DNA from: Candidatus Aenigmatarchaeota archaeon
GTDB taxonomy: Archaea > Aenigmatarchaeota > Aenigmatarchaeia > PWEA01 > JACQIF01
Direction of reading: 5' to 3'
Length of the DNA: 64,000 nucleotides
NCBI GenBank assembly: GCA_016432325.1
Contig: CP066684.1
Span: 1 to 64,000 of the forward strand
In this document: positions 2 through 12,864 of the stretch, piece by piece
Numbering within the stretch: position 1 is the stretch's first letter
Layout: each line of letters starts with the position of its first letter
Position numbers and translations under genes: made by a program
Notes under the pieces: model-generated
The model's input: only the letters and a program-made list of their open reading frames with translations
Databases searched by the model: none
Told to the model about the DNA's origin: nothing

Positions 2-2722
2 AGTTCGGGCCTGACGCTCCGAGACCAGAACGGTGCGGGCGTGCTTTACGTGAACGGGGGGAACGTGGGCATCGGGAATGCGATCCCCGGATACAAACTT
101 GATGTTTCTGGGAGCGTCAGGGTCAATGGCCCCTTTCTTGTTAACGACCAATATGCCATTGCAACAGACGCTTCCACGATATCCGTTGGCGATATAGTCA
201 GTTCCGACGGGTTAAGAAATCTCAACCTGAAGGCCGGCGATACAAGCGCGATATTTGCAACAACCGGAGGCAACGTCGGCATCGGGACGACGAGCCCTGG
301 AGCGAAGTTGACAGTATCTGCCGACGCCGCTGCTGGCAACGATGCAGTTAGAATAACCGATGCGTCTGGTAACGATTACGGCGCATTGCAACCCAATAAC
401 GGAGTTACAATCCTTAGAACGAATAATCAACCGTTGGCCTTCAAAACTAATGGTGCTGAACGTATTAGGATAGACACGAACGGTAACGTCGGCATCGGGA
501 CGGCGAGTCCGGGGGCTCCTCTTGAAGTGGAGAAGGATGCTTTGGGTCTCCTTCGCATTGAGAGAATAACCACAACCCCCGCCCAATTTGACTTCAACAT
601 TCAGCCAATAATGAGTGGCGATAATTCAGATCTCCAAATAATTCCCAACACGAATGCAGTGGGTCAAAGCTTCTACGTGCGTGATTCAGCAGGAACTCCA
701 ATCTTTGGTATGGGCATAGATCGCGGCGGCAGAGTCGGGATTGGGACCCAAAGCCCAGTCTCAGGCTACCTCCTCGACGTCAACGGTGCGCTGCGCGTGA
801 ACGGCGTCGCCTACGCTGAAAACGGCGTCGACTTCGGCTCCGCAGGCTCTGGTTGGAGCAACATAGTTGTGAGCGATGGAGGTGGTATAAATGGCGGAGG
901 CGGCAACTCCGTTTTAATCAACAGCGAAGGTGGCATTCGATTCAAGGCTAACGCAGGCAACAGCGCGCCCCATTCGATATTCGAGATGCCAGTGGTCTTC
1001 CAGTCGAATGGCGTCTTCTCCAAGCCCGTCGTGAACATAATAGCGGACGGCACATACGGCAATCCGGCGCGGACGGCGCTGCGAGTTGAGGGAAGCAACG
1101 CGAATCCCATAGTTGACGTTTATTCGGGCAGCAGCAGCGTCTTCAAGATAACAAGCGCGGGCAGCGTACTCGTTCCCAACCTCGCCAGCTGCGATACGAT
1201 TGACACGGACTCGACGGGCAAACTTGTTTGCGGGACGGATGACGGCGGTGTCACGGGCGGCTCCGCAGGCAAGGTCGCCTTCTGGACCTCGGGCTCCGCG
1301 CTCAGCAACAACGCCAACTTCGCGTGGGACAACACGAACACACGGCTCGGAATAGGAACGGCGAGCCCAACGGCGACCCTTGATGTAAACGGTGCGGCGC
1401 TTGTTCGCGGCACCCTCCACGCGGACTATCCTGATCAAACACTATTTGTTGACGGTCCCAATAACCGCGTCGGCGTCGGAACTTCAAGCCCGCAGCAGAA
1501 ACTGAGCGTCAGCGGAAACGCAGTTGTGGACCAAAACAATGCCAACATAGGCTCCGCGCCCAGCCTGCTCCTCGGCTCTTCTGGCGACGTCGGCTTCGGT
1601 TCCAAGCGCAACACAGGCGGGAACTACAACGGACTTGACCTCTATACGGCTTATCTCGCAAGAATGAGCATTACAAGCGGCGGCAACGTCGGCATCGGCA
1701 CGACAAGCCCGTCGACCAAGCTCCACGTTGCTGGCAATGCGCGCATAACAGGTCTTGCAAGCTGTGACACGATAGACACAGATGCCTCAGGAAACCTCGT
1801 ATGCGGAACAGACGCCTCGGGCTCCAGTGGCCTGCCTGCTGGCACGTCCGGCCAGACGCTCCGCCACGACGGAACGAGCTGGGTTGCAAACAACTTCCTC
1901 TACAACGACGGTTCGCGCGTCGATGTCGGTAGCGGCGGCGTGGGCGACGCAAAATGGAAGCTCGGTGTCACGAACGTTGCGAATACCGGCGGCCTGAAGA
2001 TAGCAGGAGGAGGTAACGTCAATTCCGTGCAGATAGCGCTATCTACCCCGAGCCCGCAATTCGCTGGCAATACCAACTGGGCCATAGCGACCAACTACAA
2101 CAACCCCGGTCTTGAGTTCTTGGAATCTACTTCGTACACGACAGACCCGACGATCTCGAGGTTGTTCATGGGACAAGGAGGCAAGGTGGGAATCGGCACT
2201 ACAAGCCCATCCTATAAATTGGATGTCCAGGCAAGTGGCAGTGACAGCGGAATACGTTCGACGGTGTCAAGCGGAGGCAACGCTATTTACGGTCTCAATA
2301 CAGCGGGGTCTTACGGTGTGTTTGGTGAAGCGAATGGTGCGGGTAGCTATGGGATTTTCTGCGATGCGACGTCTTCTACGGGGCTATGTGGCGGCAATCG
2401 TGCATGGTCGGTTACATCGGATGCCCGTCTTAAGAATAATGTAATAACGATAGACAGCGCACTCGACAAGGTGCAAAAACTTCGCGGAGTGAGGTTCAAC
2501 TGGAAAGACGACCCGACAAATACCCCGCAAATCGGATTCGTCGCTCAGGAAGTAGCGCCTATTGTGCCGGAAATCGTCGTCAAGGATACGAGAGGATATT
2601 ATACGGTGAAGCAGAGCGAGCTCACCGCGCTGCTGGTCGAGGCGATGAAGGAACAGCAGAAGCAGATAGAGACCCTGCAGGTCGAAGTAGCCCTTCTCAA
2701 GGCCCGGCAAGCTGTCGGCTAA
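2..2722 (+). CDS. Tail-fibre-like repeat surface protein with C-terminal peptidase S74 (intramolecular chaperone) domain; 5' end outside window
   Basis: Frame open from base 2; many GNVGIGTxxP repeats; C-terminal SDARLKNNV...LRGVRFNWK...IGFVAQEV...LLVEAMKEQQKQI signature. Confidence 0.85.
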   Translation, partial: SSGLTLRDQNGAGVLYVNGGNVGIGNAIPGYKLDVSGSVRVNGPFLVNDQYAIATDASTISVGDIVSSDGLRNLNLKAGDTSAIFATTGGNVGIGTTSPGAKLTVSADAAAGNDAVRITDASGNDYGALQPNNGVTILRTNNQPLAFKTNGAERIRIDTNGNVGIGTASPGAPLEVEKDALGLLRIERITTTPAQFDFNIQPIMSGDNSDLQIIPNTNAVGQSFYVRDSAGTPIFGMGIDRGGRVGIGTQSPVSGYLLDVNGALRVNGVAYAENGVDFGSAGSGWSNIVVSDGGGINGGGGNSVLINSEGGIRFKANAGNSAPHSIFEMPVVFQSNGVFSKPVVNIIADGTYGNPARTALRVEGSNANPIVDVYSGSSSVFKITSAGSVLVPNLASCDTIDTDSTGKLVCGTDDGGVTGGSAGKVAFWTSGSALSNNANFAWDNTNTRLGIGTASPTATLDVNGAALVRGTLHADYPDQTLFVDGPNNRVGVGTSSPQQKLSVSGNAVVDQNNANIGSAPSLLLGSSGDVGFGSKRNTGGNYNGLDLYTAYLARMSITSGGNVGIGTTSPSTKLHVAGNARITGLASCDTIDTDASGNLVCGTDASGSSGLPAGTSGQTLRHDGTSWVANNFLYNDGSRVDVGSGGVGDAKWKLGVTNVANTGGLKIAGGGNVNSVQIALSTPSPQFAGNTNWAIATNYNNPGLEFLESTSYTTDPTISRLFMGQGGKVGIGTTSPSYKLDVQASGSDSGIRSTVSSGGNAIYGLNTAGSYGVFGEANGAGSYGIFCDATSSTGLCGGNRAWSVTSDARLKNNVITIDSALDKVQKLRGVRFNWKDDPTNTPQIGFVAQEVAPIVPEIVVKDTRGYYTVKQSELTALLVEAMKEQQKQIETLQVEVALLKARQAVG

Positions 2723-9933: not shown

Positions 9934-9974
9934 CTTCTGTGCGGGGAAATTGAAAAGCGCAACTTTTCATATAT
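9934..9974. repeat. Palindromic intergenic element homologous to 31792-31827
   Basis: TTCTGTGCGGGGAAATTGAAAAGCGCAACTTTTCATATT vs TTCTGCGTGGGGGAATTGAAATCGCAATTTCATATT. Confidence 0.7.
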
Positions 9975-10159
9975 TACTTCACCTCTATAACATAGCGTCC
10001 GGCGGCTTTGACGTTCATTCCTTTCGCGATCTCGCTTTCCGCGTCGAACACAACAACAGTGCCTCTCCAGCTTCTTGTCATGTCCGTGGACTTGCACATC
10101 GGGCAGATGTCTCCCTCGACGATGCGCCTGCAGTTCTTGCACGCCTTTTCACGGACCAT
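9974..10159 (-). CDS. spt4: Transcription elongation factor Spt4 (RpoE'')
   Basis: KACKNC...CPMC...WRG...SEIAK...GRY. Confidence 0.95.
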   Translation of the reverse strand: MVREKACKNCRRIVEGDICPMCKSTDMTRSWRGTVVVFDAESEIAKGMNVKAAGRYVIEVK

Positions 10160-10161
10160 AT

Positions 10162-10869
10162 TCACTTCGCCTCCTCTGTCGCGGCCGCCTGCTCGGTTTC
10201 TACAGGAGCCTCGGTTGCGGCTTCCGCTGTCTTGACTTCCTTTGCGGCTTCCTCTCCATCCTCTTTCTTCGCTTCCTTCTTCAAACGCTCTGCGTTTGAA
10301 GTTTCCGCATCTTGCGCGGAAATCTTGGGCTCCTTGCGTTCCTTCAGTCCTTCCAGCCAGTGTATCGCACCGAGTTGAGGCTGTCTCATCGTCAGTCCTA
10401 TTTTCGCTTCCTTGGCGAACGAAACGGATATGATACGGGCGCGTACGACATCGCCTTTCTTCAGCACGCGCTTGCTCTCCTTGCCCGCGAGCACGCCGTT
10501 CTTCTTGTCCAGAGAAACGTAATCATTCATCACCTGCGATATGTGCACCAGCCCGTCCAACGGTCCCATGCGGACGAACGCGCCGAACTCCGTTATATCC
10601 ACGATCTCTCCTACGATGACCTCGTGCTCCTGAGGCATATACGTAAGAAGATTGAACTTTGCCGGGTAGTAGACTGCCCCTTCGCCCGGAACCATCCTTC
10701 CGTCTCCTACGTCGCTCACGTCTTCCACGGCGAGAACGACTCCAAGCTCTGGATTCACAACCCCTTCATACTGGTCCTGCACGGACTTCTCTATCGCGTC
10801 GGTGAGTTCGAGGCCCATCTTGCTTGCAGGGACCTTCACGTCGTCTTCGACTTCCAAAACTTTGTACAT
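10162..10869 (-). CDS. rpoE1: RNA polymerase subunit E' (Rpo7)
   Basis: S1 domain EFGAFVRMGPLDGLVHISQ, KIGLTMRQP; acidic C-tail. Confidence 0.97.
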   Translation of the reverse strand: MYKVLEVEDDVKVPASKMGLELTDAIEKSVQDQYEGVVNPELGVVLAVEDVSDVGDGRMVPGEGAVYYPAKFNLLTYMPQEHEVIVGEIVDITEFGAFVRMGPLDGLVHISQVMNDYVSLDKKNGVLAGKESKRVLKKGDVVRARIISVSFAKEAKIGLTMRQPQLGAIHWLEGLKERKEPKISAQDAETSNAERLKKEAKKEDGEEAAKEVKTAEAATEAPVETEQAAATEEAK

Positions 10870-10975: not shown

Positions 10976-11188
10976 TCAGGCCGGGGGCGTGGGCGTCGGG
11001 TCTGGGTATTCGTCTTTGCGGCCTCCGGGATCAATCTTTTTTGGCTGGAAGAGAACCCGAGGACGAATGCCATATCCCTCGTCCCAAACGGTGCAACCAT
11101 CCACTTCCGTGTTTCGAATGATTCTCAAGACACCCTCATCTGTGAGATGCCGTTCCCGTCTCTCGAAGTAATCTCTAAAAGTCGGCAT
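10976..11188 (-). CDS. Small hypothetical protein
   Basis: 70-aa ORF with upstream AT box, between ppa-like gene and rpoE1. Confidence 0.45.
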   Translation of the reverse strand: MPTFRDYFERRERHLTDEGVLRIIRNTEVDGCTVWDEGYGIRPRVLFQPKKIDPGGRKDEYPDPTPTPPA

Positions 11189-11212
11189 GGTGTACGTTAT
11201 ACACCGGTTTAT

Positions 11213-11758
11213 TTAAACCTTGTTTTCTGCGCCCAGTTTCCTCTTATACAGCGCTATCGCGTGTTCTATCGCGCGTATGGCGTCCTTGGCGCCCATCCAT
11301 GCGTCCACTTGCGCGACGCGCTCCTGCTCGCGGAACAGCGACTCGTAGAATGTCTGTATCTCTTGAAGTTGGTGCTGCTCGATGTCAGACAGATCCTTTA
11401 TTCTAGCCATGCGCGGATCCTTGTCCGGCACGCAAACAATAGCGTCGTCTCGGACGCCGTCCAGCGTCATTCTCAACAGCGCGACAGGCCTGCAGTCCAC
11501 GAGCGTACGCCGCGCGTTGGGCGCGGCACTCAGAACGATGACATCGAGAGGCGCGTTGCCTTCTGTGTACGTGCGAGGAACGAAACCAAGATCCCCCGGA
11601 GGCTTGTATGGGGTGTGTATCACGTGGGCGAGCGCGAAGATGTCCGTATGGTGGTGATACGCGTAGACGTTCGCAGAGTCCTTCGGTGTAACCACGACAA
11701 CGGTCACGATTTTAGGCACTGCCCGTCCGGGTTCAAGCGCGCTCCACAAATCCATCAC
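11213..11758 (-). CDS. Family I inorganic pyrophosphatase homologue, predicted catalytically inactive
   Basis: Scaffold LEPG..VP, GFVPRT, PLDVIV, RPVALLRM, VPDKDP, EIQTF retained; most active-site residues replaced. Confidence 0.85.
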   Translation of the reverse strand: MMDLWSALEPGRAVPKIVTVVVVTPKDSANVYAYHHHTDIFALAHVIHTPYKPPGDLGFVPRTYTEGNAPLDVIVLSAAPNARRTLVDCRPVALLRMTLDGVRDDAIVCVPDKDPRMARIKDLSDIEQHQLQEIQTFYESLFREQERVAQVDAWMGAKDAIRAIEHAIALYKRKLGAENKV

Positions 11759-12138
11759 ATTCCCTCCAGTTCCAGATGCGCGCGGCCCTTCATGGTTATC
11801 AGAGGCGTTCCGCGTTTGCGCAGCGCGCTTTGCAACGGCTTGTCTTGAGTAGCCACGACAGTGTCGCCTTCAGACGCCATCTCTTCTATCGCGCTGTCCG
11901 CCTTTTTCTCATGGTGCGGAACGATATGAACGTTTTTCTTTTCCACGAGCTGCAGCGCGAGCTTGGCGGCTTTGGCGTCTTTCGACTTGCCGCGCGAGAT
12001 GGAGACGAGTTCGATCACAACAGCCTCAGGAACGGCGAGCGTGTAGCTTCCTCCAAGAATCCTCCTGATCTCTCCGAAAACATCGATGCCGAACTGCCCG
12101 GGTATCATCAGGAAGTTGGCGTCCAAAACCACGCGCAT
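11755..12138 (-). CDS. PIN-domain protein (Fcf1/Utp24-like)
   Basis: VVLDANFL, EL, ADSAI, VVATQD motifs. Confidence 0.9.
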   Translation of the reverse strand: MRVVLDANFLMIPGQFGIDVFGEIRRILGGSYTLAVPEAVVIELVSISRGKSKDAKAAKLALQLVEKKNVHIVPHHEKKADSAIEEMASEGDTVVATQDKPLQSALRKRGTPLITMKGRAHLELEGM

Positions 12139-12167: not shown

Positions 12168-12854
12168 CTATTGCGCCCTCAGGAACTCCCCGACTTTCTT
12201 CACGTCCTCCGGCTTCCCGAAATCCAGCCAATAGTCCTTCAGCTCGTAAACGGCCACGTCCCCTGCGCGGGCGAGCGCGTTTATCGCGTCCGTGACTTCG
12301 TACTCCCCGCGCACGGACGGCTTTAGCGTTCGCAGGACGTCAAACACGTAAGGACTGAATTTGTAGAGGCCCGTGTTTATCAGATTCGTTGGCGGGACCT
12401 TCGGCTTCTCGAGAAGTTCGACCAGCGAACCGTTCTGCGTCACGAGGACTCCGTATTGGCTCGGATTCTCCACGCGAAGGCCCGCGACCACGCTCTGTTG
12501 GAACCGCGCCACTGTTCGGATGTCTTCGGGCGAATATAGATTGTCGCCCATCAGAACAACAAAGGACTCGCCGTTGACAAACTTCTCCGCGGCAAGAATG
12601 GCGTGGCCTGTTCCCTTCGGTTCTTCCTGATCAATTATCGCGACATCCGGATGTGCTTGGCGCAAATAATCCTCTAGAACTTCTTTCTTGTAGTTTACGA
12701 TAAGCGCGATTTCATCGATTCCTGCCTTGTTCAAAGACTCTACTATGTATTCGACGAACGGTTTGCCATTCACAGGAATCATGTGCTTGGGTTTGTCTTT
12801 TGTCAGAGGAAGCATGCGCGTTCCTTTGCCCGCAGCGAGGACGACGCACTTCAT
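12168..12854 (-). CDS. Sugar-phosphate nucleotidyltransferase (GlmU N-domain-like, no acetyltransferase domain)
   Basis: LAAGKGTRMLPLT..KPK, GTGHA, YGV, EKP, GEYEVTD, WLDFG. Confidence 0.9.
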   Translation of the reverse strand: MKCVVLAAGKGTRMLPLTKDKPKHMIPVNGKPFVEYIVESLNKAGIDEIALIVNYKKEVLEDYLRQAHPDVAIIDQEEPKGTGHAILAAEKFVNGESFVVLMGDNLYSPEDIRTVARFQQSVVAGLRVENPSQYGVLVTQNGSLVELLEKPKVPPTNLINTGLYKFSPYVFDVLRTLKPSVRGEYEVTDAINALARAGDVAVYELKDYWLDFGKPEDVKKVGEFLRAQ

Positions 12855-12864
12855 ACGCCGCACC

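Follow-up and report, generated by a model that had tools for sequence, protein, structure and literature searches.

What keeps a gene for a soluble pyrophosphatase (PPase) in place when the active site of its product is gone? The question is raised by the window, a stretch of 64,000 nt of archaeal DNA, in which the minus strand from 11,213 to 11,755 encodes a protein of 180 aa with the family I PPase fold and replacements at 13 of the 15 catalytic residues. An earlier note, made from the sequence by eye, had described this gene (referred to here as ppa-like) as that of a full-length pseudoenzyme selected for a new, non-catalytic role. The fold, the active site, the selection acting on the gene, its neighbourhood and its counterparts in related genomes were analysed, and the genome was searched for another enzyme that could hydrolyse PPi.

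Results

Gene start and junction with the PIN gene

The longest open reading frame of the ppa-like gene extends from 11,213 to 11,758 on the minus strand, with a GTG start at 11,758 and 181 codons for amino acids. The ATG at 11,755 is the more likely start, because the protein then begins with MDLW, matches the database copy P0001 identically and is in register with all relatives. On the coding strand, GGA ATG TGA ends the upstream PIN gene and ATG GAT TTG TGG starts the ppa-like gene. The TGA and the ATG share one base (TGATG; UGAUG in the RNA), and a GGAGG motif is located 9–13 nt 5' of the ATG. The translational coupling that had been proposed for the two genes agrees with this overlap of stop and start. 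Expression of the PPase-like protein is inferred from these sequence signals. The GC content of the gene (0.576) matches that of the genome (0.559).

Family membership and predicted fold

The PPase-like protein matches the PF00719 profile from end to end (profile positions 1–153 of 153) with 111 bits and an E value of 6e-32, against a Pfam gathering score of 23.5. A phmmer search of the PDB placed residues 1–177 without a gap onto residues 17–193 of the P. horikoshii PPase (1UDE, E value 1.9e-31), and 37 PDB PPases were matched at an E value of 1e-3 or less. The Thermococcales PPases (1UDE of P. horikoshii, 1TWL of P. furiosus, 3Q46 and 3Q5V of T. thioreducens) and E. coli Ppa are PF00719 proteins of equal length, to which the PPase-like protein aligns gaplessly at 32–35% identity. 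The end-to-end colinearity with family I PPases noticed earlier is thus borne out by the match to 1UDE, the full profile and E. coli Ppa, and none of these alignments restores the replaced residues.

The AF2 model of the PPase-like protein, built from an alignment of 67 sequences, has a pLDDT of 96.4. Foldseek comparisons of this model with 1TWL, 3Q5V and 3Q46 gave TM scores of 0.90–0.95 and r.m.s.d. values of 1.2–1.4 Å. A separate ESM Atlas model with a pTM of 0.90 has the same PPase fold. The models indicate that the PPase barrel and the C-terminal helices are retained. The search of the ESM Atlas with the PPase-like protein returned nothing but ordinary PPase clusters, and PF00719 was the sole matching family in Pfam, NCBIfam and the ESM Atlas. 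By sequence and fold, the protein is a homologous member of PF00719. However, the NCBIfam equivalog cut-offs were missed by more than 100 bits (NF002317, 88.6 vs. 200; NF002578, 62.4 vs. 246). As judged from its residues, the protein stands outside the functional class of the inorganic diphosphatases (EC 3.6.1.1), because the residues that define the class were tested and are absent.

Replacement of the active site

The active-site columns were read, in E. coli numbering, from a MAFFT alignment in which the PPase-like protein was placed with some 60 homologues and with E. coli ppa (L003:2123-2653:-). All 13 replacements that had been listed by eye were reproduced (E20V, K29V, E31A, D42A, R43H, Y51P, Y55L, D65G, D67A, D97L, K104A, Y141L and K142F), and D70 and D102 are indeed the sole catalytic residues left. 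Among the Mg2+-binding acids only these two remain, with E20, E31, D65, D67 and D97 changed to Val, Ala, Gly, Ala and Leu. The PPi-binding residues K29, R43, Y55, K104, Y141 and K142 are all replaced by Val, His, Leu, Ala, Leu and Phe, and D42 and Y51 by Ala and Pro. Unlike the Thermococcales and E. coli PPases, the protein is therefore predicted to be unable to bind Mg2+ and PPi in the canonical manner. The suspected targeting of this loss was supported by a comparison at the positions conserved in at least 80% of 37 canonical homologues: only 2 of the 15 catalytic residues are kept, whereas 27 of the 33 non-catalytic positions (82%) are retained (Fisher p = 1.0e-5), showing an otherwise intact scaffold.

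The close relatives of the protein, with which it forms a clade of four members, share the same losses. E20V, R43H, Y51P, D65G, D67A, K142F, G82R and K148R are fixed across the clade, and the positions of K29, Y55, D97 and Y141 are always occupied by Val, Ile, Leu or Met. In all, 11 of the 13 replaced catalytic positions are invariant or conservatively hydrophobic, and the positions of E31, D42, D102 and K104 vary freely among the members, D102 being Ala in P0002. Nine positions conserved in the family have changed to a new clade-invariant residue, and 43 more positions are newly invariant. The changed positions include E101 and G82, both now invariant Arg, while the positions of R88 and of K94 and K148 are still basic. 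The motifs VTPKDS, HV[IV]HTP, PPGD[LI]GF, APLD, LLRM..GVR and ES[LM]FR are invariant in the clade and specific to it.

The pocket had also been called His-rich, which holds in part. H45 (at the position of R43) and H48 are clade-invariant, but the HHH run at residues 35–37 is not conserved in the clade, and its candidacy as a metal site was dropped. The simple reading that the protein became an RNA binder was likewise dropped, since the pI of the clade proteins (5.7–6.4) is not basic.

Selection on a narrow clade

Three close relatives of the PPase-like protein, P0002, P0003 and P0004, at 58–63% identity, were retrieved from 5.8 billion clustered proteins. P0002 is encoded at locus L005 of the same genus (genome G001, contig C42) and P0004 at locus L042; the NCBI name of P0002 points to the Aenigmatarchaeota (DPANN). 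When 1.8 billion representatives were scanned exhaustively without a profile, this one cluster was the only one to precede the ordinary PPases, and a metagenome scan for clade members found the P0004 contig alone. The clade thus has four members among about 15 billion proteins searched, so that, whatever role the protein has, the need for it is confined to a very narrow lineage.

The four clade proteins differ by no indels, and 75 of the 181 alignment columns are invariant. The Nei-Gojobori (NG86) dN/dS of the ppa-like gene, calculated from the three DNA copies (the window, L005 and L042), is 0.24–0.29, and that of the adjacent PIN gene is 0.15–0.16; with a dS of about 1.2, near saturation, these values are rough upper estimates. 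The proposal that the gene is not in neutral decay, for which a ratio near 1 would have been expected, is upheld by these values and by the lack of indels. The PPase-like proteins of the query genome (G000) and G001 are 61% identical. This value is mid-range among orthologue pairs taken from four contigs of G001, which span about 50–79% (79% for the H+-PPase, 67% for the nucleotidyltransferase, 56% for PIN and 50–79% for the others). The former catalytic positions are conserved like an average position, with 7 of 15 invariant as compared with 75 of 181 overall. In a careful tree, the query clade has a support of 100/100, a long stem of 1.13 and short tips of 0.26–0.36, as expected if rapid change gave way to constraint.

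PPi hydrolysis in the query genome

The query genome is a single contig of 874,869 bp that is about 90% complete by marker genes. The search for another PPase, which the earlier note had called for, detected one PF00719 locus in G000, the ppa-like gene itself, and no DHHA2 domain of the family II PPases. An intact gene for a membrane H+-PPase is located at G000:C1:215272-217179 (PF03030, 886 bits, profile positions 1–645 of 645, no stops). It carries KAADVGADL, DNVGDNVGD, EVRRQF and DPLKD, the hallmark motifs of the membrane H+-PPase. An H+-PPase is likewise present in G001. The catalytic function thus appears to be supplied elsewhere in G000, by the H+-PPase as the sole recognisable PPase. 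The H+-PPase gene lies 200 kb from the ppa-like gene.

Gene neighbourhood

The PIN gene (11,755 to 12,138, minus strand) encodes 127 aa from the ATG at 12,138 and matches PF18477 (PIN_9) with 101.9 bits and Fcf1 with 25.4 bits, the latter above threshold. Its profile matches in the PDB include 1O4W, 5YZ4 (Fcf1) and 5WLC (Utp24 of the yeast SSU processome), and the D-E-D-D acidic residues are conserved, which identifies the product as a predicted archaeal PIN endonuclease of the Fcf1/Utp24 type. A complex prediction for PIN_9 and the PPase-like protein gave a score of 0.00 (mark 0.32), which speaks neither for nor against binding. Upstream of the PIN gene is a sugar-nucleotidyltransferase gene (12,168 to 12,863, minus strand; PF00483, 151 bits), and an orthologue with 66.5% identity lies upstream of the PIN and ppa-like pair on contig C42 of G001.

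Downstream of the ppa-like gene on the same strand are a 70-aa ORF (10,976 to 11,188), rpoE (10,162 to 10,869), which encodes an Rpb7-like RNA polymerase subunit E' with SHS2 and S1 domains (PF03876 and PF00575), and an spt4 or rpoE''-like gene (9,974 to 10,165), whose orthologues follow rpoE in related loci. The 70-aa ORF belongs to no known family, with no match in Pfam or NCBIfam and no BLASTP counterpart in the related loci, and it may be a lineage-specific insertion separating ppa from rpoE. A 7-bp hairpin is present beside this ORF at 11,188 to 11,206.

The ancestral position assigned to the gene was supported by BLASTP of the neighbours, which showed the order PIN_9-ppa-rpoE-spt4-S24e in about 30 related loci across the class. 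In Pyrococcus, ppa may adjoin rpoE as well. In the related genomes, the slot between PIN and rpoE holds a canonical ppa with 14–15 of the 15 residues in many genomes and a degenerate ppa in others. Genome-contig loci matching the single protein P0015 were bacterial only, mostly alphaproteobacterial.

At L005 (G001:C42), a converging gene for 215 aa (2,037 to 2,684, minus strand) takes the place of rpoE behind the PIN and ppa-like pair. The cluster is thus rearranged between the close relatives G000 and G001, members of the same genus, since the converging gene stands where rpoE is expected. The PIN and ppa-like genes stay together in both G001 and L042, even without rpoE. In the window, TATA-like boxes precede the PIN gene, the 70-aa ORF and rpoE. 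The box of the 70-aa ORF, TTTAAATA, overlaps the stop of the ppa-like gene and precedes the ORF's own ATG by about 25 nt; that of rpoE is a TTTAAA at about 10,946, which suggests that rpoE has its own promoter. From the placement of these boxes and the pair kept in G001 and L042, the firm transcription unit would thus be limited to the PIN and ppa-like genes.

Degenerate copies in related genomes

With the PPase-like protein as the query, a PPase homologue was detectable in 33 of 60 related genomes (34 of 61 including G000). None was detected in 27 of the 61, so the PPase slot is dispensable in some relatives. Degenerate slot copies with 3–7 of the 15 residues were found in the seven scored genomes of genus g5 (L029, L030, L033–L035, L038 and L039), in G003 (a partial copy), G006, G015, G026 and G033, and in three genomes of family f19; the degenerate loci outside g5 comprise L023, L028, L031, L032, L027 and L013. 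These DPANN copies resemble the query clade in slot position, full length and eroded active site, and in g5 they, too, are intact and maintained by purifying selection (dN/dS 0.09–0.33). However, the other degenerate copies carry different replacement residues and still have Y51, Y55, K104 and several of the acidic residues. The query clade, with 1–2 of the 15 residues, is the most extreme and the most hydrophobic. One degenerate copy with 6 of the 15 residues, L013 (G006:C99:2869-3375), has an in-frame TGA, which could reflect either a genuine pseudogene or a fault in the assembly.

Within the query's order, genomes whose slot copy is degenerate also carry an H+-PPase, a second PPase that is canonical and lies outside the slot (L011, L026 and L022), or both. 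G026, which belongs to another order of the class, has a second canonical PPase (L036) besides its degenerate slot copy. Two PPase homologues per genome occur in G003, G008, G014 and G026, with L022, L026, L011 and L036 as the canonical copies and L041, L034, L035 and L031 as the slot copies. In the tree, the extra canonical copies from G003, G008 and G014 group together as a separate clade (support 99/94), which suggests that they are an acquired replacement enzyme. In g5, G006 and G033, an H+-PPase gene lies about 0.1–2 kb from the degenerate ppa of the PIN-ppa-rpoE cluster (G008:C1:89347-93179, G012:C3, G014:C1, G018:C107, G020:C12, G006:C99 and G033:C8). The f19 genomes G039, G051 and G057, which are 90–93% complete, are the exception: neither a PF03030 H+-PPase, nor a DHHA2 domain, nor a second canonical PPase was found, and the only PPase is the degenerate slot copy (L032, L028 and L023) with 6–7 of the 15 residues. 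Either some activity persists in these degenerate copies, or their hosts are without a recognisable PPase.

A further observation concerns P0012, P0013, P0014, P0018 and P0026 (527–649 aa), each with a tandem array of three PF00719 domains that amounts to a covalently linked PPase trimer. Some of their domains are canonical with 15 of 15 residues, while domain 3 of P0013 has 6, and domains 2 and 3 of P0014 have 4 and 10. Dead protomers seem to be tolerated inside a PPase oligomer.

Number of degenerations

The LG+C20 PMSF tree requires nine changes of the active-site state, at least six of which are forced by well-supported branches. No bootstrap tree under this model has a single origin of the degenerate copies, and a branch with a support of 95/90 parts the query clade from g5. 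The catalytic columns were kept in the alignment, where their only possible effect is to draw the degenerate sequences towards each other, which makes the count a conservative one. The separation of the query clade from g5 rests on the LG+C20 PMSF model, as the quick LG+G4 tree could not reject their union (AU p = 0.62) and rejected a single origin of all degenerate copies at only p = 0.022. Under the better-resolved branches, catalysis is predicted to have been lost independently at least six times in the slot.

Discussion

The preferred reading, held at a probability of about 0.7, is that the gene encodes a selected pseudoenzyme without PPase function, derived from the ppa located between the Fcf1-like PIN gene and rpoE. 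The absence of PPase activity is predicted from the replaced residues. In the proposed mechanism, the removal of PPi would have passed to the H+-PPase, or to a second soluble PPase in sister lineages, so that the slot copy no longer had to remain catalytic. The protein would then have been kept for its scaffold, an oligomeric barrel with C-terminal helices, in a binding or structural role. Its rebuilt pocket would have a hydrophobic floor and a lining of His and Arg, with H45, H48, R84, R96, R103, R147, D72 and D105 invariant. Most plausibly, the role would be linked to the co-translated Fcf1-like PIN endonuclease or to the neighbouring transcription and ribosome genes. Given a pseudoenzyme, the PIN protein itself is a possible partner, with the odds somewhat against it.

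The replaced pocket could instead be a new site. A neofunctionalised enzyme or a small-molecule sensor, in which the invariant H45, H48, D72, R84, R90, R96, R103, D105 and R147 around the hydrophobic floor would bind or convert, independently of metal, a ligand of anionic or amphipathic character such as a nucleotide, a phospho-sugar or the end of an RNA, is unlikely. On this reading, the protein would be more than a purely structural partner. The nine switched and 43 newly invariant positions would be expected of such a site, as would the Arg residues gained at E101 and G82 and the basic residues still present at R88 and at K94 and K148. The PPase fold is moreover an OB-type barrel, a frequent binder of ligands and nucleic acids. 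However, the protein has no recognisable catalytic constellation and no family match besides PF00719, and its slightly acidic pI, given above, is atypical of a nucleic-acid binder.

The gene could also be a slowly decaying relic, ppa having become useless after the takeover by the H+-PPase and the ORF persisting by chance or for the expression of its neighbours. The loss of the catalytic machinery and the many relatives without the gene are in keeping with such decay, and other degenerate copies are perhaps decaying, as the in-frame TGA of L013 and the long branch of L027 among canonical sisters suggest. Yet a neutrally drifting relic is very unlikely for the query clade, because four full ORFs have stayed free of indels and stops at a dS of about 1.2, the dN/dS is low, the divergence is mid-range and a long stem leads to short tips; the 82% of non-catalytic conserved positions kept and the average conservation of the former catalytic positions argue in the same direction. 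A working pyrophosphatase or phosphatase that uses other residues is barely credible. D70 and D102 survive and P0002 is publicly annotated as an 'inorganic diphosphatase', but all the other Mg2+ ligands and PPi-binding residues are replaced, mostly by aliphatics, D102 is itself lost in P0002, and the NCBIfam thresholds are missed by a wide margin. Single substitutions at these positions cripple catalysis in the E. coli PPase. Crystal structures of such single mutants exist (1MJW, 1MJX, 1MJY and 1MJZ). The public label of P0002 is probably wrong.

A selected pseudoenzyme would resemble pseudoenzymes at large, such as pseudophosphatases and pseudokinases, in which an intact scaffold that has lost its catalytic residues is likewise retained by selection. 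In contrast to these, no published case of a family I PPase was found: full-text literature searches returned no description of inactive family I PPases, nor of an association between PIN or Fcf1 proteins and PPases. That a family I PPase can act as a structural subunit in a complex related to transcription has a precedent in Drosophila, where the NURF chromatin remodeller contains the inorganic pyrophosphatase NURF-38; however, NURF-38 is catalytically active and eukaryotic, whereas a physical association of the archaeal protein would be a prediction. A further proposal, doubtful at present, is that the family I PPase of these archaea has an ancestral second, non-catalytic job in the gene module of the Fcf1-like PIN protein and the stalk of RNA polymerase, and might for instance give the rRNA-processing nuclease an oligomeric platform. 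Such a job would explain why catalysis was lost at least six times with the slot gene kept intact wherever another PPase exists. If this is true, the query clade would be the purest 'structure-only' form of PPase moonlighting.

Textbooks treat soluble PPase as a housekeeping enzyme, and those who reconstruct the metabolism of DPANN archaea routinely read its presence as 'PPi hydrolysis'. Such reconstructions would be wrong for the query and several related lineages, since the near-complete genome of this groundwater archaeon encodes a single soluble 'inorganic diphosphatase', which appears, from its residues, unable to be one. With a selected pseudoenzyme of this kind, the family I PPase would join the enzyme families that have natural pseudoenzymes. 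The recurrent dead copies in one operon slot suggest that the PPase scaffold has a non-catalytic role, so far overlooked, beside an Fcf1/Utp24 homologue and the genes of the RNA polymerase stalk, and the locus would gain in interest if the gene is repeatedly retained between PIN and rpoE because the PPase moonlights.
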